Part shown: positions 19,291-38,896 of the stretch, piece by piece | Numbering within the stretch: position 1 is the first letter of the stretch | Layout: every line of letters starts with the position of its first letter | NCBI GenBank assembly: GCA_041675145.1 | Contig: JBAYUK010000002.1 | Coordinates: 24,530-88,529, forward strand | DNA length: 64,000 bases | DNA from: Patescibacteria group bacterium | Lineage (GTDB): Bacteria > Patescibacteriota > JACPGU01 | Direction of reading: 5' to 3' | Notes under the pieces: model-generated | Databases searched by the model: none | Seen by the model: the letters and a program-made list of their open reading frames with translations, nothing else | What the model was told of the DNA's origin: nothing | Made by a program: the position numbers and the translations under genes

Positions 19291-21567
19291 ATGAACAAAA
19301 AACTATCATACATTGCACTCTTTACGCTTGTATCCACCATGTTCTACCCGGGAGTAACCCAAGCAGCTGTTGTAAGAGACTACGATTACCAAATTATTGG
19401 TCAATCCTCATATCCCGCTACCCTTGCTGCTGGCCAGACTACTACCGTGTGGTTAGATATTAAGAATACCGGGAGAAAGACCTGGGACAAGCAGGTGAGA
19501 CTGGGAAGTGGTTCTGCACTTTATGGAAATAAAAACAACGACTATGCCTCAGAGTTTTCAGACAGTAGTTGGCTCTCTCCCAACCGAGCTACCGCAATAG
19601 ATAAAGATAGTGTAAAGCCAGGAGAAACAGCCCGACTGCAGTTTGTGTTGCGCACTCCTAGTTCAAGCGGAACATACAAAGCCTACTTTACTCCAGTTGT
19701 CGATGGTATCTCTTGGATGAAAGATTCAGGGATTTATTGGCAGATCAGTGTAACAGGTGGCACTACCCTTTCTGGTTTTAAAAGAGTCACCTCAGAAGCA
19801 GATTTTAAAAGCTACCTTACTGCAAGCACACAGTCACGAGGGTCGGTCATTGCCCCGACAGCAATACCAACACCATCACCTGCGCCCACTCCTACCACTG
19901 GGTCTACACCTGACAGTGTCACCAGAACTTCTGAAACGAATGTACAAGTACAAGGCATTGACGAACCAGACATGGTGAAGGTTACAGGAGAAAATATTAT
20001 ATACTCTCAAAGAGGCTTCTATTATCCGTACATAACCCGAGGCGGCTTTATACCACAACAACAGACTAGCGGCACCAAGATTATCGATGCAGTACCTGCA
20101 AAAGACATCCAGTTAAAAAACACTATTACTCGAGGTGGGGAACTCCTTCTTGATACCGAGAAGAATATTCTCATGGTATTTGACTACCCCGAGATTATTG
20201 CGTACGACATCACCGACATAAACAACCCAGTACAGAAGTGGAATATTACCCTCAAAGACTCTACCTATATCGATACTGCTCGTTTTACTAACGGTAATCT
20301 GTATGTGGTAACTAAAAGATACATAAATACCAATACCCCGTGCACAATTACACCGCTTGTAGTAAACGGCACAGCTTTCCCTATAAGCTGTACGAACTTC
20401 TACCGACCAATCGCACAAACCTCATCGGATACGGTATATACCGCAATCGTCGTCCAACCAACCACTGGCTCTATATCTAAAAGTACCAGCTTTATAGGTT
20501 CAAGCTCTGACTCACAGGTATATATGTCTGAGAACGCACTATATATCTCCTCATCGTCAGTAGCGCAATACGCAACCTTTTATACCCGTTTTATTTTGGA
20601 TAGAGCACAAGGCTTATTACCAGCAGAGGATATTGCTCACTTGCAAGCGGTACAAGGATACGCGATGAGTGATATAGCCAAGCAGACTGAGTTTGACTAC
20701 ACCATTGAACAATATACCAATAGCCTTACAGACGACGCACAAACTGCCTTTCGCACAGAACTTGCTAACCGTCAAAAAGCCTATGTAGATAGCCAAGTTC
20801 GTCAACTCGAGACAACCAGTATCGCCAAGATTAGCTTGTCAGACTTTTCACTAAGCGCTACTGGTTCAGTACCAGGGTATCTCCTTAACCAGTTCTCGCT
20901 TGATGAGTACCAGGGTAAGCTACGCGTTGCCACTACTATCGGTAATAGATTCTACTGGGGTAGTACTACTGTTAATGATGTATATGTTTTAGGTGAAGCC
21001 ATGAATGAACTGGGTTCAGTCAAAAATCTTGGCACCACTGAAAGAATCTACTCGGCTCGCTTTGTGGGAGATAAGGGGTACCTGGTTACTTTCCGCCAAA
21101 TAGATCCGTTCTATGTACTGGATCTTGCTAACCCTGCTGCACCGAAAGTGAGCGGTGAGCTTAAAATTCCTGGTTACTCGTCGTACCTACATCCTGTAAA
21201 CAACAGCCTAGTGATTGGAGTCGGAAAAGAAAATAACCAAGTAAAAGTATCTCTCTTTGATGTTACTAACCCAGCCACTCCTACTGAAGTAGACAAGTAC
21301 TATCTAAACGAGTACTGGACTGATGTGCAAAACAACCATCATGCATTCTTACTCGATAGCAAACACTCGGTCTTCTTTATCCCAGGCGGTACCGGTGGGT
21401 ATGTAATATCTTATGAAGGAAACAAACTAACACTCAAAAAAGCAGTAAGTGGAACTGGCATTAAGCGAGCAGTATATATCAACGATACCATGTACATCCT
21501 CTCAGATACCAAAGTCACTGCAATCAATGAAACAACATGGGAAAATGAAGGGGAGCTCGGACTGTAA
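19291..21567 (+). CDS. secreted beta-propeller-domain protein (PF09826/COG4880 type) with N-terminal ~110-aa repeat module
   Basis: A GAGGAA ribosome-binding site, then a signal peptide. The 'SETNVQVQGIDEPDMVKVTGENIIYS' and 'FVGDKGYLVTFRQIDPFYVLDLANPAAPKVSGELKIPGYSSYLHP' motifs mark the family. I moved the start from the ORF-track 19099 to Met 19291. Confidence 0.7.
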   Translation: MNKKLSYIALFTLVSTMFYPGVTQAAVVRDYDYQIIGQSSYPATLAAGQTTTVWLDIKNTGRKTWDKQVRLGSGSALYGNKNNDYASEFSDSSWLSPNRATAIDKDSVKPGETARLQFVLRTPSSSGTYKAYFTPVVDGISWMKDSGIYWQISVTGGTTLSGFKRVTSEADFKSYLTASTQSRGSVIAPTAIPTPSPAPTPTTGSTPDSVTRTSETNVQVQGIDEPDMVKVTGENIIYSQRGFYYPYITRGGFIPQQQTSGTKIIDAVPAKDIQLKNTITRGGELLLDTEKNILMVFDYPEIIAYDITDINNPVQKWNITLKDSTYIDTARFTNGNLYVVTKRYINTNTPCTITPLVVNGTAFPISCTNFYRPIAQTSSDTVYTAIVVQPTTGSISKSTSFIGSSSDSQVYMSENALYISSSSVAQYATFYTRFILDRAQGLLPAEDIAHLQAVQGYAMSDIAKQTEFDYTIEQYTNSLTDDAQTAFRTELANRQKAYVDSQVRQLETTSIAKISLSDFSLSATGSVPGYLLNQFSLDEYQGKLRVATTIGNRFYWGSTTVNDVYVLGEAMNELGSVKNLGTTERIYSARFVGDKGYLVTFRQIDPFYVLDLANPAAPKVSGELKIPGYSSYLHPVNNSLVIGVGKENNQVKVSLFDVTNPATPTEVDKYYLNEYWTDVQNNHHAFLLDSKHSVFFIPGGTGGYVISYEGNKLTLKKAVSGTGIKRAVYINDTMYILSDTKVTAINETTWENEGELGL

Positions 21568-21584
21568 AGTTACAAGTTACGGTA

Positions 21585-21625
21585 AAAAAAGACCGCCACT
21601 CCCGTATGGGGTGGCGGTTTACGTT
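21585..21625. terminator. bidirectional terminator
   Basis: accgccac-tcccgtatgggg-gtggcggt followed by a T-rich tail. Confidence 0.6.
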
Positions 21626-21638
21626 TCATATCAAAAGC

Positions 21639-22406
21639 CTAGGAGGGATACGGATTGTTTCTCAAGATCTCAAGAGTCTCTTCATGCACGACTCCATTGG
21701 TGACCAAAATGGTCTCTGACTTAAGACCCCACTCCTGCCCGGAAGCTGTGGTGACTTTCCCGCCTGCTTCAGCAACAATGCAGGCTCCGGCCACCACATC
21801 AATTGGGTTGCTTACCAGCAAGTAGATTTCCGCACTACCCATTGCGATCTGCGCTAACTCATACGCACTAGCGGACAGGATCTGCACTTGGCCGGTTGCG
21901 CTCACCAGCGGAAGACTGGTGTGAAACTCTCCCTTCCAAGAGCCACCTCCGTAGTAGAGGGCCTTGTTTAAAGGAAGGTTGGAGACGCGGATCGGGCGAC
22001 CGTTTGCATATGCGCCTTCTCCTTCCTCAGCCCAGACTGTTAGGTCAAGCTCGGGGAAGTGGAGGACACCTGCTACCGCCTTGTTGTTACGCATCAGGCC
22101 GATGGAGACACCGTAGAACGGAAAGCCTCGAATAAAGCTAGCCGTTCCATCCAGCGGATCCACATACCACACTTCTTCGCTATCGAGGCGAAAGCTGGTT
22201 CCTTCCTCGCTAAAGATTCCATGATAAGGGATGCTCTTATTTATCCCGTTAACAATGAACGCTTCTGAAGCAAAGTCCGCACTGGTGACAACACTGCCAA
22301 CATCATACAGAGTTGCTTTGGAACTCTCCTTAAAGCTCCCGCGATAGGAGAGTAGGATTTCCCCTGCCCCTTTGGCAACGGGAATGATCTTTTCAATGTA
22401 CTTCAT
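21639..22406 (-). CDS. suhB: inositol monophosphatase family protein (SuhB-like)
   Basis: 'WYVDPLDGTASF' and the 'EE...DP...DGT' metal-binding motifs. Confidence 0.8.
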   Translation of the reverse strand: MKYIEKIIPVAKGAGEILLSYRGSFKESSKATLYDVGSVVTSADFASEAFIVNGINKSIPYHGIFSEEGTSFRLDSEEVWYVDPLDGTASFIRGFPFYGVSIGLMRNNKAVAGVLHFPELDLTVWAEEGEGAYANGRPIRVSNLPLNKALYYGGGSWKGEFHTSLPLVSATGQVQILSASAYELAQIAMGSAEIYLLVSNPIDVVAGACIVAEAGGKVTTASGQEWGLKSETILVTNGVVHEETLEILRNNPYPS

Positions 22407-22589
22407 GGCATTTACCTATTACTGCAACCTGCTCGCCTCTATATGCAGTAACCTTTCTTTCTATATTTTAATGAGCGTTTGTATATCATATCACCTTTAA
22501 GCCTAAAAGTACAATAAAAGAGCTACAGTAAGCTCTTTTATTGCATAACGACTGTCTTAAGAAAAGTTTCAAATGACGAATAACACATA

Positions 22590-22632
22590 AAAGAAAGCCC
22601 CTTTCGGGGCCTGCCTCCTCAGGAGGACTTGA
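22590..22632 (-). terminator. tandem-hairpin terminator
   Basis: gcccctttcggggc and cctcctcaggagg hairpins. The reverse complement is followed by a T-rich tail. Confidence 0.5.
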
Positions 22633-22636
22633 AAAG

Positions 22637-22963
22637 TTATTTACCAGCTGATCCAGACGATGCAGCGTTGAAGTGGTAGATAGCAGCTTTGCTTCCAAGT
22701 TGTTTTTTTTGCACATTAGGGTTTGCGCAAATAGCAAGTGCTGTTTTCTTCTCAGGGAACTGTGCAATTCTGTATGATTCGGCAGGGGTTATCTGGTTTT
22801 GATGCCAAACCAGCATCACCATATCAGCGCTACCGTCGTAGGTGTCATCTGGCCCAAGGCTTAAAACCTCTTCAAAACCATGTGTTTTGGTGTCTTTTTT
22901 TGAACTTTTTAACGCTGTTTTTGCTGCGTTAGCCAGCACTGTCCTTTTTCTCCGACCAGCCAT
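22637..22963 (-). CDS. hypothetical small basic protein
   Basis: 108 aa starting at the Met preceded by a GAGAGGAGAGG ribosome-binding site. The ORF track extends it to 23179, which I rejected because that would overlap dinD. Confidence 0.45.
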   Translation of the reverse strand: MAGRRKRTVLANAAKTALKSSKKDTKTHGFEEVLSLGPDDTYDGSADMVMLVWHQNQITPAESYRIAQFPEKKTALAICANPNVQKKQLGSKAAIYHFNAASSGSAGK

Positions 22964-23070
22964 AAGCCTCTCCTCTCTGTAATGTTTTCTTAGGGTCGAT
23001 GTAAAAAGTGTATAATACTTTTGTACATTAGTCAATAGAAAAGACTTAAATAAGCCTTTTCTTATCATGC

Positions 23071-23162: not shown

Positions 23163-24005
23163 ATGGACAAAGCCCTCACACAAATACAACAAAATCTTGA
23201 ATCTATTAAGAAAACGTCAAATGACGCCGAGCGGATGGAATTTTGGTCTGCTCGAGACCTGATGCCTATACTAGGATATTCAACATGGCGTCAGTTTTCT
23301 GAAGCTATTGATCGTGCTAAGGAGTCTTGTAAAACAAGTGGTCAACCTGTGGAGGGGCACTTTTTGCCGGCGCCGGCAAAAAGATCCGGTGGTCGTCCAG
23401 GAGAGGACTTCTTATTAACGCGCTATGCATGTTACCTCATCGCTCAAAATGGCGACCCGCGTAAACCCCAAATAGCCCTGGCTCAAACCTATTTTGCTAC
23501 CCAGACCCGTAAACAAGAATTACTTGAGCAACGCGAGGAAGAAAACAATCGGCTCGAAGCCCGGGCAAAGCTCAAGGAAACCGAGAAGAATATCGCCTCC
23601 ACCGTCTACCAGCGAGGCATCAAGCTCCAGGTTGAGTTTGCCACATTCAAAAATAAACACATCGAAGCACTCTACGGTGGCATTCCTGCAAATCAGCTCA
23701 AAAAAATGCGCGATATCCCAGCCAAGCGATCACTGGCCGACTTTGACTCGCAAGTAGAGTTGAAAGCCAAAGACTTCGCACTCGCTATGACGGATCACAA
23801 TATTAAGCAGAAGAATATTAAAGGCAAAGATGCCATGAACGCCGAAGTGGTGAAAAACAGCAAAGAGACCCGCCAAGCACTCCTTAATCGTGGCATTAGA
23901 CCCGAGCTCATCAAGCCAGAAGAAGATCTAAAGCGAGTTGAGGCACGCCGCAAGAGCGAAGAAAGAAAGCTCAGCAATCAAAACAAAAAGTTACTAGAAG
24001 GCTAA
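23163..24005 (+). CDS. dinD: DNA damage-inducible protein D
   Basis: 'EFWSARDLMPILGYSTWRQF', 'LTRYACYLIAQNGDPRKP' and 'AQTYFATQTRKQEL' match E. coli DinD block by block. Confidence 0.85.
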   Translation: MDKALTQIQQNLESIKKTSNDAERMEFWSARDLMPILGYSTWRQFSEAIDRAKESCKTSGQPVEGHFLPAPAKRSGGRPGEDFLLTRYACYLIAQNGDPRKPQIALAQTYFATQTRKQELLEQREEENNRLEARAKLKETEKNIASTVYQRGIKLQVEFATFKNKHIEALYGGIPANQLKKMRDIPAKRSLADFDSQVELKAKDFALAMTDHNIKQKNIKGKDAMNAEVVKNSKETRQALLNRGIRPELIKPEEDLKRVEARRKSEERKLSNQNKKLLEG

Positions 24006-24515: not shown

Positions 24516-25535
24516 CTAAAAGCTAAAGAAAGGTGGGATAGTCCCTGCAGCCACTAAAACATTTATTACATTAAAGATTCCAAAGAAGATCACGACCAGC
24601 CCCGCTGTCTTGAAAAACACGCCTGACTGCGCCTTGGTGTGGACGCTAAGTGAACTGAAAGAAAGGAGAGCGAGGACCGGCAGAGTACCGAGCGCAAACG
24701 CCCCCATGATTATTGCTCCAGTCGCGAAACTACCCGTTGTTAGCACGTAGATCTGCATGGACTGCGTAAAGCCACAGGGTAAGAAAAAGGTTGCAATACC
24801 AACGAGGGTGGGAGTTAGGGTGTGGTTTAGATTTTTGAGTCCGTGCACATGCTTCCCAACAAAAGCTGGTAGTGTTGGCTGGAATCTCTTGGCCCACGGG
24901 AATATACCTAGAAGGTTTACACCGAGAACAAGAAGCACAAGTGCAACGAAAATACCCAAGGAGGCTACGATAGTCGGCCCAAGCTGGAATGCTGAACCCA
25001 GCGCGCCAATCGCACCCCCGAGGATAAGAAACGATGCAAGCCGGCCGATATGAAATAATACCTGCGGTCGTATCTTGTCGCCCTCTTTGGCAAAGTTAGC
25101 CGAGAGCGAGAGCACGAGGCCACCGACCACGGCCATACAGGTCGAAACTGAGGCGATCAGGCCAATCACAAAAGCCGTACCGGGCCCGACCTGCGCGGTG
25201 GTGACCAAATTCACTAGGCCCAGCTTTTGCAGAAGAATAAAAACGCCGATAAAACCAATTGCGAGCGGAACAGCCAGCCGAAAGTCCGACCAACGCACCG
25301 CATTCTTCTGCGACTTAAGAGAGAGCGTATAGCCATGCGGTCGCAAGACTTCGCTCAGGTCACGCGCAATCTGCTCAGGAGCTTGGTCGCCAAAATCACC
25401 ACGGACCACAACACGGTGATTCGCGAGCGATGCCTTCGCCGTTGTTATTGCCGGCACACCCATAAGCCCACTCTCGATGAGCGCCACGCAGGAGCGACAA
25501 TGCATACCATGGATGTGAAATGTATACGTCTTCAT
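24516..25535 (-). CDS. HMA-domain fused to DsbD/CcdA- or TauE-like permease
   Basis: N-terminal 'HIHGMHCRSCV' is an HMA metal-binding domain. It is followed by 6-8 transmembrane helices with 'STCMAV' and 'LPCGF' motifs. Confidence 0.6.
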   Translation of the reverse strand: MKTYTFHIHGMHCRSCVALIESGLMGVPAITTAKASLANHRVVVRGDFGDQAPEQIARDLSEVLRPHGYTLSLKSQKNAVRWSDFRLAVPLAIGFIGVFILLQKLGLVNLVTTAQVGPGTAFVIGLIASVSTCMAVVGGLVLSLSANFAKEGDKIRPQVLFHIGRLASFLILGGAIGALGSAFQLGPTIVASLGIFVALVLLVLGVNLLGIFPWAKRFQPTLPAFVGKHVHGLKNLNHTLTPTLVGIATFFLPCGFTQSMQIYVLTTGSFATGAIIMGAFALGTLPVLALLSFSSLSVHTKAQSGVFFKTAGLVVIFFGIFNVINVLVAAGTIPPFFSF

Positions 25536-25539
25536 ATAA

Positions 25540-27855
25540 TTAAAGCTCTTTTACTTTTAGTCGCAGCGAGTTGCCCACGACCGAAACACTGGATAAGGCC
25601 ATCGCTAACCCGGCAAAAACCGGATTGAGCAGCCAGCCGAAGATAGGGTAGAACAAGCCAGCCGCGAGCGGGATTCCCACAATATTATAGAAAAATGCCC
25701 AAAATAAATTTTGCTTAATCCCGCGCATCGTCATTTTCGAAAGTCGAATAGCCTTCACAAGCTTCGTGATGTCCCCGTGAAGCAGAGTAATGCCAGCGGT
25801 TTCGATAGCTACGTCCGTGCCAGTCGCCATTGCGATCCCAACGTCCGCCTGCGCCAGAGCCGGTGCGTCATTGACCCCATCACCAGCCATCACCACGCGC
25901 GTGCCTTTGGCCTGCAACTCTTTAATTAACTTCAATTTATCCTCCGGCAAAACTTGGGCAAACACTTTTGTTATCCCTGCCTGATCCGCAATAAAACGAG
26001 CGGTGTTTTGATCGTCTCCGGTCATCATAATGACGGTCAGTCCCATTTGCTTTAGCCTTTCAACTGACTCCTTTGCTTCCGGCTTGATTTTATCGGCCAC
26101 CATTGCGACCCCCAAAACTTCTTTTTTAGTGGCAAGAATCACTGGAGTTTTACCCTGTTTGGTTTCTAGCTCGATCATTTTCTCGTCGATTTTTAACCCC
26201 AATTCTTTGATCAACCGGACATTGCCCACCCAATATTGAGTTTTCTCGATCACGCCTGTTGCCCCTCGGCCTTTGAGCATCTCATATTTAGCAACCGGCA
26301 GCGGATTAATCTTTTTTTCTTTCGCGTACCGCATCGTTGCCTGAGCCACCGGATGATCAGAATGACTGTCCAGCGATGCGATGAGAGCAATCAAAGCTTT
26401 TTCAGATAATTCAGATAATGAACTAATCGAAACCAATTCCGGTTTTCCTTGAGTAATAGTGCCGGTTTTATCCACCACCACAGCATTCACCCGATAGAGC
26501 TTTTCCAGTGTCGCCGCGTCTTTGATCAAAATCCCTTCCTGGGCTCCGCGTCCCACTCCAACAATAATCGCAGTCGGCGTGGCCAGCCCCAGAGCACACG
26601 GACAAGCGATAATAAGAATACCAACAAAAGAAGTCAGACCATATGAAAATGCCTGGGCAAGCCCGAGAGACCCGGTGCCGACAACCAGCCATAGTAAAAG
26701 AGTGCCCAAAGACAAAACGATCACGATCGGCACAAAAACCGCCGATATTGTATCTGCCAAGGCCTGAATCGGCGCTCGGCTGCCCTGAGCCTCCTCAACC
26801 ATTTTGATAATCTGTGCCAAAAAAGTGTCGGACCCAACCTTTGTCGCAGTAAAAGTAAAGCTCCCCGTCGTATTGATTGTACCCGCTACAACACTATCCC
26901 CAACATTTTTTTCAACTGGCATTGGCTCACCACTCACCATCGCTTCGTCCACAAAAGAGTTGCCTTTACTTACTACTCCGTCCACTGGAATACGAGACCC
27001 TGGTTTAACCACAATAATATCGCCTTTTACTACCTGCTGAATTGGTATTTCAATCTCTTTGTTGCCGCGAAACACTAAAGCTGTTTTTGCCTGTAAGTTG
27101 AGAAGTCTTTCAATAGCGTCACCAGTTTTTAGTTTTGAACTCGCTTCTAGATATTTTCCGAGAGTAATAAAAGCTACCACCACGATCGTAATATCATAAT
27201 AAGTACTATCAACATCCAAATAAGGACGTAGGGTATCCTCAAAAGCTGAGACAGCAAAACTATACAAATAGGCCGCCAGCGTTCCCATACCAATCAAGGT
27301 ATCCATATTAGCTTTGCCGTATCTTAAAAATCTATAGAAGCCAAGCAGGTACGGCTTACCAACTACAAACAGAGTATAGGTGGCAAATATCGGCAATAGA
27401 TGATGAAAAAAATCTTTTATAAAAATACTCATCCCAGCGACCAGCTGTAATTGAGCAAGAATATCCCAACCCATAACAAAAATACTAAAAACCGCCAGTG
27501 GCATTACTGAGATGACTTTAAGCTTCATTTCATTTAGCTCAATTGTTTTTTCCTGTTTAGTTTGGTTTAGACCCAAATGGGCAGCGTGTTCACTAGCTGT
27601 CATGCCCATTGCGCTAGCACTAGACCCAGCCAAGTTTTTCTCTACTGGAAGCTGAAAGGTATAACCCAAAGGCTCAATTGACTTTGAGAGTTGGTGTGGG
27701 CTGTTCTTATTTTCATCAAACACAACCTTTGCTTTTTCGGTACCATAGTTCACCTCTGCCGCGGTTACACCAGCTTGTTTTTTTAGAACACTCTCAATGG
27801 TCCGAGCACATGATGCACAGTGCATACCACGGATTGGATAAGTGTGTTTAGTCAT
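25540..27855 (-). CDS. copA: copper-translocating P1B-type ATPase
   Basis: HMA domain '[12 protein letters not shown]', CPC motif '[11 protein letters not shown]', 'DKTGTIT', 'MTGDDQNTA' and '[10 protein letters not shown]'. The start is set at MTKHT and overlaps the csoR stop by TAAcATG. Confidence 0.9.
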
Positions 27856-27856
27856 G

Positions 27857-28132
27857 TTATTTTCTTTTGAGCTTATAAACTTTAAGGATTTCTGTTTTGG
27901 CCTTTTCGATTCTACCTGCCTTGAGCTGATCAACGATACAACCACTGAGGTGATTTTCCAGCAACAAATCCTCAACATTGGAAAGTCCCTGCTTCACAGC
28001 CGAGGTCTGTGTAATGACATCGATACAGTATGCATCTTGTACTATCATATCTTGTAGCCCTCGCACCTGCCCCTCAATGATCTTGAGGCGCCGCACTAAT
28101 TTTTTCTTATTTTCCGATTTGATATATTTCAT
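27857..28132 (-). CDS. csoR: CsoR/RcnR-family metal-sensing repressor
   Basis: '[36 protein letters not shown]' is the CsoR signature with Cys/His ligands. Confidence 0.85.
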
Positions 28133-28495: not shown

Positions 28496-28568
28496 TGGAC
28501 CCGGTGGGGATCGAACCCACGACCCACGGCTTAAAAGGCCGCTGCTCTACCAACTGAGCTACAGGTCC
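28496..28568 (-). tRNA. tRNA-Lys (anticodon UUU)
   Basis: Manual cloverleaf: 7-bp acceptor stem, D-arm GCTC/GAGC, anticodon stem GCGGC/GCCGT with loop CTTTTAA, and T-arm GTGGG-TTCGATC-CCCAC. CCA is not encoded. Length is 73 nt. Confidence 0.85.
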
Positions 28569-28662
28569 ACACATGTTCCGCTATCTTACCATAAATAGAT
28601 CTTTTTTTCAAGCGCTGATGTGTGTATTATACAAGCAAAGAGCAAACAACAACACACAATAT

Positions 28663-30030
28663 ATGAAATTAACCTTTCTCGGTGCCTCACATCGCGTAAC
28701 TGGATCCAACTACCTCCTTGAAGCAGGTGGAAAAAAACTCCTGATCGACTGCGGGCTATTTCAGGGTGACTGGGATGCACATAAGAAAAACTATAACGAA
28801 TTCACCTTCGATCCTAAAAGTATCGATGCGGTACTGGTTACTCACTCACATATCGACCATATCGGACGCATTCCGAAACTGTTTCGTGATGGGTTTGAGG
28901 GGAAAGTCTACTCCACTCATCCAGTTCAGGACTTTGCGGCGCTCTTCTTAGGAGACCAGCTCAAATTCATTAACCCCGAGGAAGATCCAGACCAGTTTCA
29001 TCCGGAACCACTCTGGGAGGAAACGGATCTCAACAAAGCGATCCAAGGCTGGGAAGGAAAAAACTACCACGAGCCGATGAAGATCGGCGATGTCACTATT
29101 GTCTTCTTAGATGCCGGACATATCTTAGGCTCCTCTATTATTATGGTAGAGGCAGAAGGGAAAGTAATCTCATTCTCAGGAGACTTAGGGAACGACCCAG
29201 TGCCGATCGTGCCACCAATTGAAAAGGGTTTTAAGACCGACTATGTCGTGATGGAATCTACCTACGGGGATCGGAATCACGAAAACATTGCCCAGCGCGC
29301 CTTGATGCTTGAAAAAGCTATCAAGGATGTACAGAAAAGTAACGGGGTACTCTTGGTGCCAGCTTTTGCCATGGAGAGAACCCAGGAGTTACTCTACGAA
29401 ATTAACCACATGGTAGAAACCAAACAAATTGAACCTATCCAGGTATTTGTCGACAGTCCGCTCGCTATTAAAGCCACTGCGATATACAAAAAGTACGAGA
29501 GCTACTTTGATGTAGAGGCGCGTGACATGATCAAAGCCGGAGATGATATCTTTAACTTTCCGGGACTTGTTATTACCCGTACCCCAGAAGAGTCACGCCA
29601 GATCGCCAAGGCTCCTGGACCCAAGGTTATTATTGCAGGGTCTGGCATGAGCAATGGGGGGCGCATCCTGTTTCATGAACGAAACTATTTAGGGGATCCT
29701 ACCACTATCATGCTCTTTGTTGGGTTCCAGGTAAAAGGGACGCTCGGGCGCAAAATTAAAGACGGGCAGAAGAATTTGAGGATCTTAGGACAACCCGTGC
29801 AGATTAGGGCAGAAATTCGCGAAATTGCCGGGTACAGCGCCCATGCCGACCAATCGGCCCTGATTCGTTGGTTGTCTTCTCTACACCAGTGCGAAGGAGA
29901 GTGTCAGGTAAAGAAAGTATTTTTAACACACGGTGAACTCACTGCATCTCAAGCACTCTCCACTAAAATAAAAGATACGCTCGATATTACCAGTATTATT
30001 CCTATTGAAGGTGAAACATTTGAGTTATAA
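28663..30030 (+). CDS. beta-CASP/MBL-fold ribonuclease (RNase J-like)
   Basis: 'THSHIDHIG' (HxHxDH), 'DAGHILGSS' and C-terminal 'GYSAHAD' beta-CASP motifs. I set the start at MKLTFLGA rather than the ORF-track 28573. Confidence 0.75.
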   Translation: MKLTFLGASHRVTGSNYLLEAGGKKLLIDCGLFQGDWDAHKKNYNEFTFDPKSIDAVLVTHSHIDHIGRIPKLFRDGFEGKVYSTHPVQDFAALFLGDQLKFINPEEDPDQFHPEPLWEETDLNKAIQGWEGKNYHEPMKIGDVTIVFLDAGHILGSSIIMVEAEGKVISFSGDLGNDPVPIVPPIEKGFKTDYVVMESTYGDRNHENIAQRALMLEKAIKDVQKSNGVLLVPAFAMERTQELLYEINHMVETKQIEPIQVFVDSPLAIKATAIYKKYESYFDVEARDMIKAGDDIFNFPGLVITRTPEESRQIAKAPGPKVIIAGSGMSNGGRILFHERNYLGDPTTIMLFVGFQVKGTLGRKIKDGQKNLRILGQPVQIRAEIREIAGYSAHADQSALIRWLSSLHQCEGECQVKKVFLTHGELTASQALSTKIKDTLDITSIIPIEGETFEL

Positions 30031-30037: not shown

Positions 30038-32347
30038 ATGAAACACACACATCTTTTTTTATCTATTTTGTTTGTAGGGAGTCTTGTTGCAACCGCACTA
30101 CCTACTCCTACCTACGCCGCAGCAGGGGACGCACGCGCTATGATTTCTAGTGTTCGTTTAGCAGACACCCAAAACACCTACTTCCTCGTAACGAGTAGTC
30201 ATGACACTACTACTATCCAGGCTTTTGCCCGTCTGGGCCTCACTAAGTACGAAAAAAATAACCGCCTGGGCGTCTTTCGTCTTGGTATACCGAAAGAAAA
30301 CCAAGAATCAGTTCTTATAGAACTGAAAAAAGACTCCTCTATTGTCGCTATTGAAGCAGACCAAAAAGTCTCACTCTCATTTACTCCGAATGACCCGTTT
30401 CTTTCTAAGCAAACCTATCTTGCGAGTAGTAATATTATCAACGCATGGGATACCAGTCTTGGCTCTCCTACTGTGGTGGTAGCAGTGATCGACACCGGAG
30501 TAGATTACTTTCACGAAGACTTACAAGGACGATTATGGAGTAACGCGAGTGGTCAGTTCGGGTATGACTTTGTCAACAAAGACACTGACCCGATGGATGA
30601 CCACGGACACGGTACTAACATCGCCGGTATTATTGGCGCCAACATTAGTAACGGGATTGGTATTGCCGGGATCGGTAATGTTAAGATCATGGCACTTAAG
30701 TCTATGAACACGAATGGTGACGGCTTTGCTTCAGACATTGCTGAGGCTGTTTACTTTGCCGCCGACAATGGAGCACGTATTGTAAACCTGAGCTTAGGGC
30801 TCCCCGAATCAACTACGGTTTTAGATAAAGCCGTGCAGTATGCGTATACCAAGGGTACGATCGTCATAGCTGCAACAGGAAATAAAGGAGTAAAAAAAAT
30901 AGATAGTCCCGCTAACCATCCTCTCGCTGTAGGTGTTGGGGCCTTAAATAGCGCCGAGAGTGTTGCTGAGTTTACCAACTACGGTCCAGAACTCGACCTG
31001 ATGGCGATGGGAGAAAATGTGTTTGCTCCTACGTGGTCTCCGACTAACCTTATGACCCTCTACCAACAAAATAACCGGGGAACCTCATTTGCTGCTCCGC
31101 AGGTATCGGGTACTGCCGCACTTATTCTTTCTCGTGACCCATCGTTATCTGCTGACCAGCTAAGAAAGCGTTTAATTATTTCTGCGAAGAAGATTCCTGG
31201 TATGCAAGCCAATGAGTTCTCTGAGCGTTACGGATACGGGAAGATTGACGCTGGTAAAGCCGTAACCTTTGATACGGTAGCCCCAACTGTAACTGCTTCG
31301 GCTTTTACGTTGGGTAACGGGGTATTCCAAATTACCGGAAATGCAAAAGACGATAGCACCACTTCAAGTTTCTTGCCTGATGTAACCACGAGTAATATAA
31401 ACCAGATTCGCTACCAGGTAGACGGTGGGGAATGGCAGATTGTAAAAAATACTGCTATTGCTAGCTCAATTCCAGTAAATATATTAACCGCCAACTTGTC
31501 TACTGCGAACCATGTCATCAACATTGAAGCGACAGATACCAGTGGTAATACTGGTCGCAAAACACTTGAGACGAAAGATGCAACCGTTGGCGCAATTTCT
31601 AATGTAGCCAACGACTACAAAGCAACGCTGGTATCCCAAAGCCCGTACCCTTCTATTTCACCAGCACAAAAAGTGAATATGGTAATTACCTACAAGAATA
31701 CGGGGGCATCTCTGTGGACCCGAGATAAAGTCCATCTTGGGACAAGTAAAGCGTATGACAGGAATAGTCAATTTGCGGACTCGTCATGGCTTTCTGGCAA
31801 CCGCATCGCCATGAAAGAGGCCGTAGTAGCTCCAGGAGACCTGGCTCACTTTGAATTTACCATGACAGGACCTACTGCCTTTGGCCAGTTTAAAGAATAC
31901 TTTGCCCTCGTATCTGAAGGTGTAGCCTGGTTCTCAGACATTGGTCTTTACTGGGTGGTAAACAGCGAAAAGCCGTCATACCACGCACAGTTCGTAACGC
32001 AAAGTCCGTTTACAATCGTGAACCGTGGAGATACCAGAACCATGTGGGTAGAATACAAGAACACTGGCTCTCAAGCGTGGAATGACAGTAATGTTGCACT
32101 TGGTACTGCCAACCCACTCGACCGTACTAGTCCGTTTTATACCAACGCGAATGGTTCAGGCTGGAAAAGTGCAAACCGTATCAAGATGGAAAAAAATAGT
32201 GTCCAGCCAGGGGAAAGTTCTAAGTTCAGCTTTACTATCAAAGCTCCTGAAACACCAGGAGTATACACCGAGTACTTTAGACCAGTCGTGGACGGAGTAG
32301 GCTGGATGGAGGACTATGGTCTTTACTGGTCTATTGCCGTGCAATAG
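30038..32347 (+). CDS. secreted subtilisin-like S8 serine protease with I9 propeptide and two C-terminal ~110-aa repeat modules
   Basis: Signal peptide. Catalytic triad 'VAVIDTGVD', 'HGHGTNIAG' and 'GTSFAAPQVSG'. The C-terminus carries two copies of the W/N-rich module shared with the other two large secreted proteins. Confidence 0.85.
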   Translation: MKHTHLFLSILFVGSLVATALPTPTYAAAGDARAMISSVRLADTQNTYFLVTSSHDTTTIQAFARLGLTKYEKNNRLGVFRLGIPKENQESVLIELKKDSSIVAIEADQKVSLSFTPNDPFLSKQTYLASSNIINAWDTSLGSPTVVVAVIDTGVDYFHEDLQGRLWSNASGQFGYDFVNKDTDPMDDHGHGTNIAGIIGANISNGIGIAGIGNVKIMALKSMNTNGDGFASDIAEAVYFAADNGARIVNLSLGLPESTTVLDKAVQYAYTKGTIVIAATGNKGVKKIDSPANHPLAVGVGALNSAESVAEFTNYGPELDLMAMGENVFAPTWSPTNLMTLYQQNNRGTSFAAPQVSGTAALILSRDPSLSADQLRKRLIISAKKIPGMQANEFSERYGYGKIDAGKAVTFDTVAPTVTASAFTLGNGVFQITGNAKDDSTTSSFLPDVTTSNINQIRYQVDGGEWQIVKNTAIASSIPVNILTANLSTANHVINIEATDTSGNTGRKTLETKDATVGAISNVANDYKATLVSQSPYPSISPAQKVNMVITYKNTGASLWTRDKVHLGTSKAYDRNSQFADSSWLSGNRIAMKEAVVAPGDLAHFEFTMTGPTAFGQFKEYFALVSEGVAWFSDIGLYWVVNSEKPSYHAQFVTQSPFTIVNRGDTRTMWVEYKNTGSQAWNDSNVALGTANPLDRTSPFYTNANGSGWKSANRIKMEKNSVQPGESSKFSFTIKAPETPGVYTEYFRPVVDGVGWMEDYGLYWSIAVQ

Positions 32348-32402: not shown

Positions 32403-33671
32403 ATGAACATAAATCCATTCCACAGAAATAATGTTGATACAATAAACCGTCGCGTTGATCAGCTTACAGAAGACAATAATCGCGAAAATGTCCGAGAGAG
32501 TTTTGGAGACAAAATTTCTGGATACTTTAACGACAAGATAACAAAGGTAGTGGTGAGCACCTACGACTCTCTAGAGTTTAAATTCAAGACATATCAGCAC
32601 GACAAAGTAGATACGAAACAAGCACGAATGACTGCTGATCGTGATCGTGACCAGAGCCAACTTAATAAAATAAACGAAAGAATCGCCTCTTTTGAGGCAA
32701 AGATTGCTACTGATTCACAAGGAAAAAGATGGTCTGGAGAACTTGCGGGAGCAAGAACCAGCGCACTTCGTGAACTTAACGACCTACGAAGACAGCTCGA
32801 AACTAGAGTTAGCTCTACCAGTTCTGAGATTAGCAATACTAGTGAAGTTAGAGCAAAAAAGAAAGAGGAACTACAAACAGTTGCTAACCGAATTGATAGT
32901 CGTGCAACAAAAAGACTTGAGCCTCTTGAAAGACAAAAAACAAGACTTGAAGAAGCCAATAAAGAGATTAACACTGAAATTGAAAACTATATAGAACAAA
33001 AGGCTGGATTTCAAACAGAGAGAGATGGTCTTAAATCTGAGCTAGACCAAGCAGTTACCCAAGGAGAACGTGTGGCATTACGCAGATTGCTCGGTCAAAT
33101 TGATCGAGAAATCGCTGGCGTTGATCGCGATATCCGGGGCTTAAAAAAAGAGTTACAACCAATAACGACAGATATGGTTTCTGTTCAGAGAAATATAGAT
33201 AACTGGAAAGTAACCAGTAATCATTTCGTTGAAATGGCAAAGCGCGGTTCAAGTCCAGATGTACACTACAATGTTCCAAATACTGAACGAGTAGAAAACA
33301 CTCCAAGAACTGTTATGGAAAACGACCGTAGAACCTTCGGGGGAGAAGAACCAGAAGAAGATATTAGCGATTCAAACCCTCCTGAACACAACATCAATAT
33401 GGGTCCACAAATGCCCACTATGATTTCATCAGCATTTGTATCAGAATTTATTCACGAGTTTAATGACTTACCTGAAGGAATGTCTAACACCCTCTCTCCT
33501 GCTCTTCTAGATATGCAGAGAGAGTTAAATAACCCTATTAATACAGGTCATCTTACTGCTGATGAATATAAAGCTCTACTCCACCCAATACTACAGAATT
33601 ACAGCATAAGAAATATTGGGGCAATACATGCTTTAGATACATTAGTAGACAGAATATTTTCTAGAATCTAA
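32403..33671 (+). CDS. hypothetical cytoplasmic coiled-coil protein
   Basis: 422 aa, R/E/Q-rich, heptad-like repeats, no signal peptide. Confidence 0.5.
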   Translation: MNINPFHRNNVDTINRRVDQLTEDNNRENVRESFGDKISGYFNDKITKVVVSTYDSLEFKFKTYQHDKVDTKQARMTADRDRDQSQLNKINERIASFEAKIATDSQGKRWSGELAGARTSALRELNDLRRQLETRVSSTSSEISNTSEVRAKKKEELQTVANRIDSRATKRLEPLERQKTRLEEANKEINTEIENYIEQKAGFQTERDGLKSELDQAVTQGERVALRRLLGQIDREIAGVDRDIRGLKKELQPITTDMVSVQRNIDNWKVTSNHFVEMAKRGSSPDVHYNVPNTERVENTPRTVMENDRRTFGGEEPEEDISDSNPPEHNINMGPQMPTMISSAFVSEFIHEFNDLPEGMSNTLSPALLDMQRELNNPINTGHLTADEYKALLHPILQNYSIRNIGAIHALDTLVDRIFSRI

Positions 33672-34644: not shown

Positions 34645-35181
34645 CTAGGGGAGCTTTACTGTTTCTATGAGACTGTAAAGAACATCAACCATCGCTTTTC
34701 TGCCTACTTCTTCCTGTGAGAGATCTACTATGAACTGGTACACGACGCGGTTCTTTTCTACCGCAAATATCTCATTTGCTGGCTTAGTTGGCACATCGTA
34801 GTATACATACCAGTTATTCCCCTTGATGTTGTTAAATGGTCTTGCATCAGGCGGGATGTTGTTGGCGTCAAAGTATGCTTCTAGATCCTTGTACTGCGCA
34901 TCGAGCGTGGAAGCTTTTACTACTGCTTTAATCTTTTTATCTCCATCGAGAATCTCGATGTGGTTACCGTTGTCACTACTTTCATGTACACTAAATGCTT
35001 TTGGATACGTAAACGATATGGGGATTTGTTTTCCGGTAAAGGTTTTAAGGTCACTAAAGCGATCTAAAATTCCTCCACCGTGGTTGCCCACTGAATACCA
35101 AACACCAAACACGAGCGCAATCACAATTGCGGTCATCGCTACCAGAATTTCGTAAAACTTTTTGTTGCGTTTCTTAAGCAT
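34645..35181 (-). CDS. hypothetical membrane-anchored protein
   Basis: N-terminal transmembrane helix followed by a ~140-aa periplasmic or extracellular domain. Confidence 0.45.
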   Translation of the reverse strand: MLKKRNKKFYEILVAMTAIVIALVFGVWYSVGNHGGGILDRFSDLKTFTGKQIPISFTYPKAFSVHESSDNGNHIEILDGDKKIKAVVKASTLDAQYKDLEAYFDANNIPPDARPFNNIKGNNWYVYYDVPTKPANEIFAVEKNRVVYQFIVDLSQEEVGRKAMVDVLYSLIETVKLP

Positions 35182-35191
35182 AGTACTTGTA

Positions 35192-38100
35192 TTAACTGTC
35201 TATTGAGTAAATACCAACACGAATATTAATACCTGATTCATCTACTTTTGTGGTATCTGTTCCTTGGTAGAAGTATTGTAACACTTCTTTGTATGTTTTG
35301 CCTTGGTTAATGAGGTCTCGCGCCCCTCGACCCGGCAAGCCCACTCCATGCCCTAAGAGAGGAAGTCCAGCTGATCCAGGGTCAGATACCGACGTGAGCC
35401 ACGGGTAGTCTGACTGTTTAAAGTTCCATACTTCAGAGGCTGCACGAGTACGACCATCCGACTGTGTGTAGTACGGGGTGATTACAGGCTTACCGTTATA
35501 TGTAACAATCTCGCCGGCCGTAGCGTCATCTCCTCGACCAATATTTACTGCTCGTTTAGTAAAATTGTACCCCTGGAAGATCTGGTCATCTCCATTACCA
35601 TTGCGACTGTTTTTAAGAGTTAGGAAATCGTCTTTATGGCGGCCACCTAACCGGTAGTGATACAGTGCGTAACTGCGTTGGATAATACTCGAGACTTTAA
35701 GATACTCAGCAGGAAACGTGTCGATAGACTCGGATACTCCTTTTAAGTAGTCTTCAATAAAGAGCTCATCGATTGCCCAGAGTTTCTTATGTACGGTAGA
35801 GTAGCGAATCTCCATCACTCCCTTGAATGCATTGTCGTTAAGATTTGGGTTCCAGGTTGGACGATCACTGTAGAGTGGAAGCGTAAAAATGGTGGCATCG
35901 TGAGTTGGAACAAAACGTACATAGTTTGCGCTCGTATATGTTTTACCTTGAAGAACTGTTGTGTATGTACCAGCAGAGTAGGAGACGGCTGCGGTGTCAT
36001 CTGCTACGCCAGTAGCAATAGTAGCAAGCGTTAGTCCGTCTACTATTTTAAAGTCTCCCGATCCAGTAACCTGGATACTCTTCCCGTCACTTGGAATGGG
36101 AGCAGGTGACACTACCTGAGGAACAGTAGGAGTAATTGGCGTCTGGGCAACGCTCGTGCCAGTAGTGTTTTGTGCTCCAGGCTGAGCAGCTCCTGACGTG
36201 ACGATAAACTGCCAATAGATACCAATATCTTTAAACCATGCCACACCATCACGAACTAACGTAAAGTACTCTTTATATGTGCTTTGGGAATTTGGTGCGG
36301 TAACGGTAAATGTAAATCGGCCATTTTGTCCTGGCGCAACACTGTCCTGATCTAGTTGAACACGGTTGCTGTTAGTAAACTGCGAGATTCTGTCGCGTGG
36401 ATTAGCCGTTGCAAGTCTCACCGGAGTTGCTCCGCCTTTCTGCCATGTAGTTGAACCAGTGTTTTTTACTTCAATCCAAACTTGTGTGGTGCTGCCTGGT
36501 GTCATAGTCGGGAAGGCACTTTGCGCAACAAATGCAAAGTCGTCAAAGGATGGCTTGATAGTAATATCCCAGTACATACCATTTACTCCGAAACGATCAA
36601 TACCCTCAGCTACTAGTCTAAAGTACTCACGATACACGCCATCTTTCTGGTCTGTGTTGAGTGGGATAATGAAAGTTGCTATTTCACCGGGAGCAACCGA
36701 GTTTTCTAAAAATCCAAGACGGTTTGGTGAAAGCCAGGCGGAAGTGGCAAAGATACTACTACGATCATTTGCATTGGTAGTTGAAAGATGCACTTTGCTC
36801 TTGTCCCAGGTAGCAGTACCAGTGTTTTTAAACTTTACCGACATGTTGTATGCGAGTCCCTTTGAGGTAGTTGGGTAGGGACTCTGCTCAGTTAGCTGTG
36901 CGTCATACGAGACAGTACTGGGAGTTGGAGCACGGGGCGGTGTCGGCATTGGAGTAAGAGACTGACCAGATCCTGGTGTAGGGCTTGGTACTGGTGTGAG
37001 TGGAGCAGGAGTTGGGGTAGGAGTCGGCACAACTACAGGAGTTGGAGTCACCGGGGAAGGGGTAGTATCGGCAGTAACCGTAATACTAACAGTCACCTCG
37101 AGTGGGTTGCTCGATACCAGGTTTTGATCTGATTTTATAGAAAATTTCTCTTGGTATTTACCAGGGTTTGTCGGTGGTGTAAATAAAAAGGCAATGCGTC
37201 CATTTGAGCCAGTTGGTACAGTACTACCATCTAAGGTTCCTGCGTTGCTTTTTGTAACCCAGTCACCTGCCGTAAAGTAGGCGCTATCTGCCTGGTTAGT
37301 AGTCACTAGTCGAATGTTTTCTGATCCATTCCAACTCGTTGACCCTATGTTTTTTACATCTACCCAGTACGATACGGGTGCTGATCCAGCCTTGACTGTC
37401 TGCTCAGGACTCTGTCCTACAATCTTAGCGCCATAAGCAGGCGTGGTAACTGTGACCCCGAACTGTACATGAGTTCCAGAAAGTATGGTGCCGTCCACAT
37501 AGAAATCTCCCTGGACTTGTTGCGACATATTACCCAGCGGCGCGGTCACTGCGAGGTTAAGTGTCCGTATTTCTCCTGCCTCAACGCTAGCGCCAAAGTC
37601 CTCTAACCCTACCGAAAGTCCTGCAGTATCTGAAGATCTAAACTCTAGCTTATGAGCACCAGCAGATAACAACGCTATGTTTCCACTATTTTTTAAGCTG
37701 ACGCGAAGATTCTTAGTCTCTCCGCCATTCATTTGTAAACTACCCTCAGATGATAACACCTGCATAGCATACTGACGCGCAGGGTAGGCAGCCAGCTTCT
37801 CGGCAACCTTAATTCTCACCATCTCCATTCTGCTGTAGAGGGTATTACCCGGACAGCTAGTTGGATTTAAGTCTTGGTGACCAACAATAGTTGGGATTAT
37901 CTTGTTAATAAGCTTGACGGTACCGGCAGGATCAATACGGTTTTTATATGCCAAATAGGCAACGAGGTCAGTGATTGCCTCGAACTGAGACTGTTCAACA
38001 TTTCTTACATTATAGTCTCCAATAACTGAGATCCCGATCGTACCAGGATTATACCCTGAAGCGTGTCCTGCTATTACACTGTTACCTCCAGAGCGACCTT

Positions 38101-38896
38101 CATAAATACCACCATTAAGGTCGACGACATAGTTATACCCAATGTCTCCCCAACCGTAAGTGACTGCATGACCATAATAAATATTGCGTACCATATCCTT
38201 TGGATCCACTCCGGTGATACGACTATCATCCGCTGCGGTATGGTGAATCACTATGGCTTTTACTTCACTGTACTCTGGTTTCCAGGTCATGTAGCTTGAG
38301 TTTGCTCCCCAGGAAGATCTGGAAGTTATCTGCGGTCCAAGACCGGCAGTATCTGCAGAAATGCGCGCTGGCATATCTGACTTCGGGGGAGTAAAGAGAA
38401 CGAAGTGAATTGCAAATTCTTTTCCTATTTCAGAGGCATCAAAAACTACTTTATATTGGAACTCGTTACTAGAGACAGCGCTTACAGTCTCTCCGATAGC
38501 ACGACTATCTTGAATACCGCGGCCATCTGGTGTATCTGAGTCAATTCTCTCCATCTCACGCCATACAAGGCTGTTGCCTGACCTTACAAATACATGGGCA
38601 CCACTTTCACGCGTCCATGAACCAACCATTCCCGTAAAACTGTGGTGGGTAGTTACTTTATTTGAAGTATAGCGTGCTGCACTCACTACAAAGCTATTAT
38701 CCACACCACTACTATGTTCATCTATTGTTATTGCTTGAGATACGATGTTAGCACTGTCCTCTAGGACTATATGTTTACTGATTTCTGCATCACTTGATGC
38801 ATGCACGGGAAACACGAAAATCTGAGCGCTTATAAAAAGCGCTAAGGCAAGGTATGAAATGGTTTTTTGTGTAATATACATGTATCTATTATACAT
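35192..38896 (-). CDS. 1234-aa secreted cell-wall hydrolase: Amidase_2 (PGRP) + 4× ~110-aa repeat modules + P/T linker + SpoIID/LytB domain
   Basis: Amidase_2 region 'VIHHTAADD...GDIGYNYVVD...HQDLNPTSCPG'. Four repeats of the W-rich module. SpoIID-like C-terminus 'YLKGVSE...VITPYYTQSDGRTRAASEVW...YPWLTSVSDP'. Confidence 0.8.
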   Translation of the reverse strand: MYNRYMYITQKTISYLALALFISAQIFVFPVHASSDAEISKHIVLEDSANIVSQAITIDEHSSGVDNSFVVSAARYTSNKVTTHHSFTGMVGSWTRESGAHVFVRSGNSLVWREMERIDSDTPDGRGIQDSRAIGETVSAVSSNEFQYKVVFDASEIGKEFAIHFVLFTPPKSDMPARISADTAGLGPQITSRSSWGANSSYMTWKPEYSEVKAIVIHHTAADDSRITGVDPKDMVRNIYYGHAVTYGWGDIGYNYVVDLNGGIYEGRSGGNSVIAGHASGYNPGTIGISVIGDYNVRNVEQSQFEAITDLVAYLAYKNRIDPAGTVKLINKIIPTIVGHQDLNPTSCPGNTLYSRMEMVRIKVAEKLAAYPARQYAMQVLSSEGSLQMNGGETKNLRVSLKNSGNIALLSAGAHKLEFRSSDTAGLSVGLEDFGASVEAGEIRTLNLAVTAPLGNMSQQVQGDFYVDGTILSGTHVQFGVTVTTPAYGAKIVGQSPEQTVKAGSAPVSYWVDVKNIGSTSWNGSENIRLVTTNQADSAYFTAGDWVTKSNAGTLDGSTVPTGSNGRIAFLFTPPTNPGKYQEKFSIKSDQNLVSSNPLEVTVSITVTADTTPSPVTPTPVVVPTPTPTPAPLTPVPSPTPGSGQSLTPMPTPPRAPTPSTVSYDAQLTEQSPYPTTSKGLAYNMSVKFKNTGTATWDKSKVHLSTTNANDRSSIFATSAWLSPNRLGFLENSVAPGEIATFIIPLNTDQKDGVYREYFRLVAEGIDRFGVNGMYWDITIKPSFDDFAFVAQSAFPTMTPGSTTQVWIEVKNTGSTTWQKGGATPVRLATANPRDRISQFTNSNRVQLDQDSVAPGQNGRFTFTVTAPNSQSTYKEYFTLVRDGVAWFKDIGIYWQFIVTSGAAQPGAQNTTGTSVAQTPITPTVPQVVSPAPIPSDGKSIQVTGSGDFKIVDGLTLATIATGVADDTAAVSYSAGTYTTVLQGKTYTSANYVRFVPTHDATIFTLPLYSDRPTWNPNLNDNAFKGVMEIRYSTVHKKLWAIDELFIEDYLKGVSESIDTFPAEYLKVSSIIQRSYALYHYRLGGRHKDDFLTLKNSRNGNGDDQIFQGYNFTKRAVNIGRGDDATAGEIVTYNGKPVITPYYTQSDGRTRAASEVWNFKQSDYPWLTSVSDPGSAGLPLLGHGVGLPGRGARDLINQGKTYKEVLQYFYQGTDTTKVDESGINIRVGIYSIDS

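Follow-up and report, generated by a model that had tools for sequence, protein, structure and literature searches.

The FW domain, also called NBR1-Ig-like domain, is an Ig-like β-sandwich that is catalogued in Pfam as PF16158 (N_BRCA1_IG, "Ig-like domain from next to BRCA1 gene") and in CDD as cd14947, and structures are available for human NBR1 (4OLE), ILRUN (6VHI), and Chaetomium Nbr1 (7VQO). The eukaryotic domain occurs once per protein, in a cytosolic autophagy receptor. Bacterial FW domains with various architectures, frequently at the C-terminus, have been on record since 2012 (Marchbank et al. 2012, PMC3357945) and are mentioned also in later review and structural papers (PMC9582228, PMC9233695). 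The XRE-FW proteins of the former study have one FW copy each and act as DNA-binding regulators in the cytoplasm, and Patescibacteria are not in its list of clades (PMC3357945). Here, we describe a 64,000-nucleotide stretch of DNA from a Patescibacteria group bacterium (assembly GCA_041675145.1, contig JBAYUK010000002.1, positions 24530 to 88529), hereafter called the window, in which three secreted proteins share a module of ~120 residues. The interval 19291-38896 consists of their three separate genes, with unrelated genes in between: a PF09826 beta-propeller protein of 758 residues (19291..21567, + strand), an S8 subtilase with two C-terminal module copies (30038..32347, + strand), and a fusion of Amidase_2, module repeats, and SpoIID (35192..38881, - strand). 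The shared module almost certainly belongs to the FW / NBR1-Ig-like family PF16158, of which it is an extracellular bacterial representative with an Ig-like β-sandwich fold. The window proteins resemble the bacterial FW proteins described earlier in family, in diversity of architecture, and in the C-terminal tendency of the domain, but, unlike the XRE-FW proteins, they are secreted, multi-copy, and, as judged from their domains, wall-active.

The relationship among the three proteins was examined by all-against-all BLASTP. The beta-propeller copy matched the S8 copies with E values of 2e-25 and 4e-21 and the amidase copies with E values of 5e-30, 7e-20, and 3e-14, and the S8 tandem pair matched a tandem pair of the amidase protein at 43% identity over 246 residues (E 1e-57). 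By these alignment statistics the similarity is far beyond chance. An initial annotation of this DNA had proposed a module common to three large secreted proteins, which is borne out by E values of ~1e-14 to 1e-57 and by open reading frames (ORFs) lying where it had placed them, and its consensus string proved essentially right against the column conservation of 277 homologous domains, the set to which all conservation values below refer. Its designation of the carriers as three enzymes holds for the S8 protease and the amidase fusion protein, but not for the PF09826 beta-propeller protein, which received no catalytic assignment in the tool outputs.

A hidden Markov model (HMM) built from the copies recovered, in the six-frame translation of the 64-kb window, those copies and nothing else significant. 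Six copies are clear, with pairwise identities of 24-49%. One lies in the beta-propeller protein (residues 29-155, 19375..19755, + strand; independent E value (i-E) 1.8e-51), where it contains a small extra insertion, ALYGNKNNDY, its coordinates being confirmed by translation. Two are found in the S8 protein on the same strand, the first at residues 536-655 (31610..31969; i-E 7.9e-55) and the second at the extreme C-terminus (residues 657-780, 31973..32344). The remaining three belong to the amidase fusion protein and lie on the - strand at residues 486-608 (37073..37441; i-E 2.6e-26), 662-781 (36554..36913; i-E 4.8e-40), and 783-900 (36197..36550; i-E 1.1e-43), of which the copy at residues 486-608 is the most divergent among the six. 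A recent DNA duplication as the source of this similarity was rejected because the copies are just 24-49% identical at the protein level, and also because the gene order around the S8 and amidase genes is conserved in two distant relatives, a "Patescibacteria group" metagenome-assembled genome (MAG) and a Saccharibacteria MAG (loci L001 and L002, respectively).

Seven copies had been counted initially, and the seventh, the first in the amidase fusion protein (residues ~374-484, 37445..37777, - strand), survives only as a degenerate FW-like Ig domain. Neither the conserved tryptophans nor the DR..S.F..W.S.NR loop is present in this segment. It reaches an i-E of 3.4 with the HMM built from the window alone and a marginal 0.0035 with an HMM of 55 sequences, and it gives no match to PF16158; its best Pfam match is a weak one to CARDB (E 0.016, 15.9 bits vs a cut-off of 22.7). 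It is, at the same time, related to the module by hhalign with 92.8% probability (E 4e-7, 78 columns), and in related genomes an FW-type domain begins 5-27 residues after Amidase_2 in all ORFs having Amidase_2 and a detectable FW copy (69/69). The profile relation and the presence of an FW domain at the same place in related proteins together show that the seventh copy is a degenerate FW copy.

The family assignment is supported by several independent comparisons. As whole proteins, the three carriers score 28.4 (the beta-propeller protein), 46.9, and 75.0 bits for PF16158, all at or above the Pfam gathering threshold of 28 bits. PF16158 is also the best family for every clear copy alone, with 32.2, 23.9, 33.5, 28.3, 32.0, and 36.6 bits in the order given above; five of the six pass by themselves, and S8 copy 1 is just below the cut-off. 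The family is present in the public precomputed Pfam tables for all three proteins, and the amidase fusion protein is 100% identical to a public protein (P0011, NCBI MFA7308965.1) named 'NBR1-Ig-like domain-containing protein'. When 1.84 billion cluster representatives were searched exhaustively by HMMER with the six-copy query, 7,538 proteins were found at E <= 1e-3, of which 932 reached E <= 1e-30. The statistics below on copy number, N-termini, and partner domains of module homologues refer to the best 150-155 of the 7,538 matches, 122 of which were scanned against Pfam. In 117 of the 122, PF16158 was matched (E <= 1e-5; best 7.6e-76). Word-indexed homologue searches with one copy and with the six-copy alignment returned just 1 and 5 short proteins, respectively.

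Structural comparisons gave the same answer. When a 55-sequence profile was searched against the PDB, human NBR1 (4OLE) was found at rank 1 (E 5.3e-6), the Chaetomium Nbr1 FW domain (7VQO) at rank 2 (E 0.0074), and ILRUN (6VHI) at rank 4 (E 0.017). A profile of just the seven window copies gave no convincing PDB match, with antibody light chains at E > 0.01; this profile is too shallow, and the 55-sequence profile was needed. The AlphaFold2 model of S8 copy 2 was obtained with a predicted local distance difference test (pLDDT) score of 97.6 and a predicted template modelling (pTM) score of 0.88. In a Foldseek search of the PDB with this model, ranks 1-5 were occupied by 4OLE chains A/B/C, 6VHI, and 7VQO, with E values of 3e-6 to 1.3e-4 and template modelling (TM) scores of 0.64-0.77 (0.71-0.75 for 4OLE and 0.68/0.77 for 6VHI). 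Ranked below these FW structures are generic or linker Ig-like domains of glycosidases and CARDB (2KL6).

Two other named families were tried and rejected. The best single-copy scores for CARDB (PF07705) are 13.1-15.9 bits, below its threshold of 22.7, and NEW3 (NPCBM_assoc, PF10633) is matched in two copies at 16.6 and 17.4 bits, below its threshold of 24.4, and in none of the others. These cross-matches have E values of 0.004-0.1 for single copies and 1e-10 to 1e-28 in multi-copy homologues, and the stronger NEW3 matches of the latter sit within PF16158 matches (P0013). The likeness to both families is a weak cross-similarity in the central strand-loop-strand region; the clear window copies score higher for PF16158, whereas the degenerate copy has its best score, below the cut-off, for CARDB. 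The initial annotation had regarded the module as novel and outside any named family. The domain family is, however, already known: it is named, structurally solved, and annotated already on the amidase fusion protein. The mapping of the HMM onto an existing domain refutes the novelty in spirit, the function of FW domains being only partly characterised.

Within PF16158, the module has both shared and distinctive features. In common with the FW domains of NBR1 and ILRUN are the fold, the KNTGxxxW motif, in which the Asn and Trp are conserved at 100%, and the strand pair PGE..F.F...AP..G.Y. The conserved columns are Q9, G18, N29 (100%), G31, W35 (100%), L42, W63, R68, V76, P78, G79, F84, F86, P91, G95, Y97, W110, and V122. 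The module also has its own loop of ~20 residues, P-x-D-R-x-S-x-F ... W-x-S-x-N-R, whose eight positions (P47, D49, R50, S52, F54, W63, N67, and R68) are conserved at 57-96% and are numbered one below their place in S8 copy 2; the segment P47-R68 is mostly non-regular in the AlphaFold2 model. The window copies are ~10-15 residues longer than the human NBR1 domain, and ~10 loop residues fall opposite a gap in the 4OLE alignment. The extra length is accounted for by the conserved P-D-R-S-F...W-S-N-R loop, of which human NBR1 has a shorter version or none. Moreover, the window copies are extracellular, tandem, and hydrolase-fused, in contrast to the single cytosolic copy of the eukaryotic receptor.

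The aromatic residues and the ligand pocket also differ. Among the four name-giving tryptophans of NBR1, only that of KNTGxxxW is strictly kept, at 100%. In place of that of 'SHWRL' there is Phe in 68% and Trp in 19%, and opposite the remaining two stand V/L/I and Thr. This whole comparison depends on a β-strand register that is uncertain without structural superposition. Three other conserved tryptophans are the module's own, namely W63 (93%), W110 (85%), and W118 (38%). The pocket of the Chaetomium Nbr1 FW domain binds the Ams1 tail (PMC9233695), and its register was taken from the 7VQO alignment, in which W672 precedes RNTG, R743 is in 'RACRV', and H760, L762, and W763 are in 'GHxLW'. On this register, the module has V/L/I, T/S, and D opposite W672, R743, and H760, so the Ams1-tail pocket is not conserved. 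The module probably has a ligand different from those of the eukaryotic FW domains.

With 7,538 cluster representatives, the extracellular bacterial FW subfamily is very large. Among 155 best homologues, there are 1-14 copies per protein (mode 3), typically 3-5 in tandem, and a copy is placed at the extreme C-terminus in 112. A signal-type N-terminus is present in 122 of 150 homologues, compared with 4 of 150 for an internal control segment, and all three window proteins likewise begin with hydrophobic signal-type segments. The partners in the 122 scanned homologues include Amidase_2 (11), SpoIID (11), Peptidase_S8 (10), M23 (3), CHAP (2), and Peptidase_C1 (2), as well as CARDB, fn3-like, cohesin, GSDH, A2M, LRR, and cupredoxin domains, and one homologue (P0136) has LysM. 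The occurrence of the module on different secreted catalytic domains, which had been read from the window alone, thus extends to its homologues in both signal N-termini and partner domains.

The Amidase_2-FWn-SpoIID architecture was found in 57 ORFs, one per locus, from 80 fetched loci, with 2-5 FW copies (mode 3), and these loci are almost all from Patescibacteria. Among GTDB species representatives, the closest relatives of the amidase fusion protein are those of L002 (44% identity) and L001 (40%); further relatives at 26-34% come from many Peregrinibacteria, Peribacteria, and Gracilibacteria and from a few Chloroflexota. A link of the module to Patescibacteria, raised at the outset, is therefore supported by the closest amidase relatives and by the loci with this architecture. 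The window, L001, and L002 have in common the gene order of solute-binding protein, HSP20, amidase/FW/SpoIID, ComF-like, S8/FW/FW, and beta-CASP genes. This agreement marks the amidase and S8 genes as a stable part of the chromosome rather than a mobile island. The fusion of FW to PF09826, by contrast, is rare: of ~45 PF09826 homologues, just two extend over the N-terminal FW domain, one being the protein of the window and the other a relative that is 63% identical. Since most PF09826 homologues are without an FW copy, the domain was added to the beta-propeller protein in this lineage. No paper joining NBR1 with Patescibacteria, or SpoIID and amidase with Patescibacteria, was found in a literature search, and a paper on Saccharibacteria genetics makes no mention of these domains (PMC10633639).

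The FW copies are non-catalytic, mobile units that occur modularly and as tandem arrays on secreted proteins, and many of these carriers cleave peptidoglycan or protein; the peptidoglycan-hydrolase domains are found on the same polypeptides as the repeats. The targeting or substrate-binding role proposed for the module in the initial annotation is plausible. More specifically, the module is put forward, tentatively and at chances just short of even, as a putative multivalent wall- or surface-binding unit that would target enzymes to, or retain them on, a polymeric ligand of the envelope. Wall binding is suggested by the tandem repetition, the C-terminal placement, the fusion to Amidase_2, SpoIID, M23, and CHAP domains, and the conservation of the loop. 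The overall explanation that combines membership of the FW family with targeting to wall or surface is the best available, and we judge it slightly more probable than its negation.

The reading as a wall- or surface-targeting module draws on functional analogy with the LysM, SH3b, and CW_binding repeats of Gram-positive autolysins and lysins, which likewise lack catalytic activity, form tandem arrays, often lie at the C-terminus, and are joined to amidases, M23/CHAP peptidases, and domains that cleave glycans. These repeats are, however, unrelated to FW in fold and family, and FW was not found in phage genomes. In the proposed mechanism, the FW copies would hold the enzymes on a cell-envelope polymer and take no catalytic part. 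The likeliest ligand would be peptidoglycan or an associated wall glycopolymer, on the cell wall of either the producer itself or a host, with the conserved Asp/Arg/Ser/Phe/Trp/Asn/Arg loop as a candidate for the site that binds it. For the fusion protein, the two-step SpoIIP/SpoIID system serves as the mechanistic model: stem peptides would first be removed by the amidase, and the glycan strand thus laid bare would then be cleaved by the SpoIID domain on the same tether, so that both steps of this reaction would be placed in a single polypeptide. The target could be the cell's own septum or a host wall. Homologues of SpoIID, which occur widely among bacteria that do not sporulate, bind peptidoglycan and degrade denuded glycans (PMC6635528). 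The likeness to the SpoIIP-SpoIID (DMP) machine and to septal SpoIID homologues (PMC6635528) consists in the pairing of an amidase with a SpoIID domain that cuts denuded glycans. By comparison with that machine, the window activities are found in one secreted polypeptide, joined by FW domains, and the amidase is of the Amidase_2 type instead of SpoIIP. A SpoIIM-like partner was not identified.

Several observations weigh against wall targeting. The biochemically defined FW ligands, namely MAP1B-LC1, TAX1BP1, and the N-terminal tail of Ams1, are all proteins or peptides and include no glycan (PMC9233695, PMC9582228). Many homologues are without a recognisable hydrolase domain, and the partners are heterogeneous, including GSDH, cohesin, A2M, LRR, and cupredoxin domains, so wall hydrolases are not the only proteins on which the module is used. 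In addition, the sample of homologues is skewed toward relatives of the window proteins. Wall-binding modules are common in phage lysins, and a tblastn search of 50,697 phage records with one copy gave no match, while a Foldseek search of BFVD gave only generic Ig-like matches with TM scores of at most 0.62. Finally, the conserved loop could be structural instead of being a binding site.

The strongest competing explanation is that the FW copies are protein-protein docking modules, comparable to the eukaryotic FW domains, whose targets are peptide tails or coiled coils. They would tie the three enzymes to one shared protein on the surface, for which an S-layer, a pilus, a scaffold of the cohesin type, or a host surface protein would qualify. 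The protein nature of every characterised FW ligand (PMC9233695, PMC9582228) speaks for it, as do the co-occurrence of cohesin domains with the module in 3 of 59 homologues and the presence of the module on very different passenger domains. Nevertheless, the peptide pocket residues of Chaetomium Nbr1 are not conserved in the module, and tandem arrays fused to Amidase_2, SpoIID, M23, CHAP, and LysM are more typical of binding to a polymer such as the wall. Docking is therefore considered rather unlikely. A passive role is less probable still, in which the copies would be Ig-like spacers or stalks without a specific ligand that keep the catalytic domains at a distance from the membrane or from each other, or that aid folding or protease resistance. 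The variation of the FW number from 2 to 5 within Amidase_2-FWn-SpoIID proteins, the degeneration of one window copy without gene loss, and the linker Ig domains of glycosidases that follow FW among the fold neighbours are all in accordance with spacers. Spacers, however, usually keep core residues only, whereas the long loop of the module keeps D, R, S, F, W, N, and R at 57-96%, and the single copy at the N-terminus of the beta-propeller protein has no obvious need for spacing. A new domain family unrelated to any named one, for which the PDB result of the seven-copy profile and the few word-indexed matches could be cited, can practically be dismissed in view of PF16158 scores above the cut-off, NBR1 at the top of the deeper profile search, FW structures as the top folds, and the GenBank name NBR1-Ig-like.

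If the wall- or surface-targeting role is taken further, the extracellular tandem bacterial FW repeats could constitute an unrecognised class of modules binding peptidoglycan or the host envelope, with the DRSF/WSNR loop as the site, although we consider this doubtful. Were it true, the signature domain of the NBR1 autophagy receptor would descend from a bacterial cell-surface-binding module, and episymbionts of the candidate phyla radiation (CPR) would use it to direct a protease and a conserved amidase/SpoIID 'wall cutter' to the septum of their own cell or to the host wall. The Amidase_2-FWn-SpoIID protein represents a predicted bifunctional peptidoglycan hydrolase conserved in Patescibacteria, with a subtilase adjacent. 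Because these ultrasmall episymbionts have a minimal wall-remodelling toolkit for division and interaction with the host envelope, a defined FW ligand would be informative both for CPR cell biology and for the question of how the cargo-recognition domain of NBR1 originated in evolution.

The remaining parts of the three carrier proteins can be described as follows. The beta-propeller protein has a signal-type N-terminus, MNKKLSYIALFTLVSTMFYPGVTQA, and its PF09826 domain covers residues 214-749 (19930..21537, + strand; Beta_propel, E 3.9e-108, 362.9 bits). An identical public protein (P0157) is named 'beta-propeller domain-containing protein [Patescibacteria group bacterium]' and has precomputed Pfam matches to PF16158 and PF09826. 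For the S8 gene, the mechanically called ORF begins at TTG 30005, and the public gene call of 769 residues starts at ATG 30038 (MKHTHLFLSILFVGSLVATALPTPTYAAA). The latter is probably the true start because the end of the preceding beta-CASP gene (30030) falls inside the mechanical ORF. The Peptidase_S8 catalytic domain (30470..31240, + strand; PF00082, E 3e-53) scores 181.4 bits against a cut-off of 21.8, and the motifs VIDTGVD, HGHGT, and GTSFAAP can be read in the translation; they correspond to DTG, HGT, and GTSxAxP, which we take, as in subtilases generally, to be the Asp/His/Ser catalytic triad. Between the catalytic domain and the FW copies is a region of ~105 residues (~431-535, 31295-31609, + strand) with weak Ig-like/OmpL47-type matches only, and it is kept in the S8-FW-FW genes of L001 and L002.

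The ORF of the amidase fusion extends to 38896, upstream of the public start at ATG 38881 (Met6), from which the protein has 1229 residues; the gene is also present in the public gene table of locus L081. All its domains are on the - strand. The ~160 residues before Amidase_2 (36-194, 38314-38791) have no Pfam match and are conserved in only the two closest relatives, L001 and L002. They are followed by the Amidase_2 (N-acetylmuramoyl-L-alanine amidase) domain (37844..38269; PF01510, 69.3 bits vs a cut-off of 26), with the motifs IHHTA and GHQDLNPTSCPG. A Pro/Thr-rich low-complexity linker (residues ~610-660, 36917..37069), read in the translation, separates the first clear FW copy from the tandem pair. 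The C-terminal SpoIID/LytB domain, of the glycan-strand-cleaving type (35195..35788), matches PF08486 with 33.5 bits (cut-off 23) and TIGR02669 with 88.5 (cut-off 83.3). The score for the equivalog TIGR02870 spore_II_D, 77.4, is below its cut-off of 234.75, so the fusion protein is not itself that sporulation protein.

Other genes lie between and around the carriers. The S8 and amidase genes are separated in part by a gene for a 422-residue coiled-coil-rich protein (32403-33671, + strand), which has only sub-threshold matches to FliJ and HMMR_N and no homologue in the syntenic loci L001 and L002. A 178-residue protein whose N-terminus contains a hydrophobic segment and which has no Pfam match is encoded at 34645-35181 (- strand), 10 bases downstream of the amidase/FW/SpoIID gene and on the same strand. 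It too is absent from L001 and L002, where a ComF-like gene directly follows the amidase gene. Upstream of the S8 gene, a beta-CASP / metallo-beta-lactamase RNase-type protein is encoded at 28573-30030 (+ strand), for which the precomputed table also gives PF23023 (Anti-Pycsar_Apyc1). Just downstream of the gene for the solute-binding protein, a 140-residue protein (40880-41302, + strand) is assigned to PF18895 (T4SS_pilin) in the public table.

Giant uncharacterised proteins are common in CPR genomes, and the window contains one at 52054-60003 (- strand), an ORF of 2649 residues with no Pfam family at E <= 1e-3. A Bro-N domain protein (E 4.4e-11) at 23163-24005 (+ strand) adjoins an overlapping ORF of 180 residues on the opposite strand; Bro-N is typical of regulators of phages and mobile elements. 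The segment 24001-28000 has a G+C content of 0.516, compared with ~0.44 elsewhere, and lies over a metal-resistance cluster composed of an HMA and DsbD_2 membrane protein (24516-25535, - strand), a copper-type P-type ATPase (25540-27978, - strand), and a small Trns_repr_metal repressor. This cluster may have been horizontally acquired. One tRNA gene (28496-28568, - strand; 74.3 bits) is the sole Rfam match in the window.

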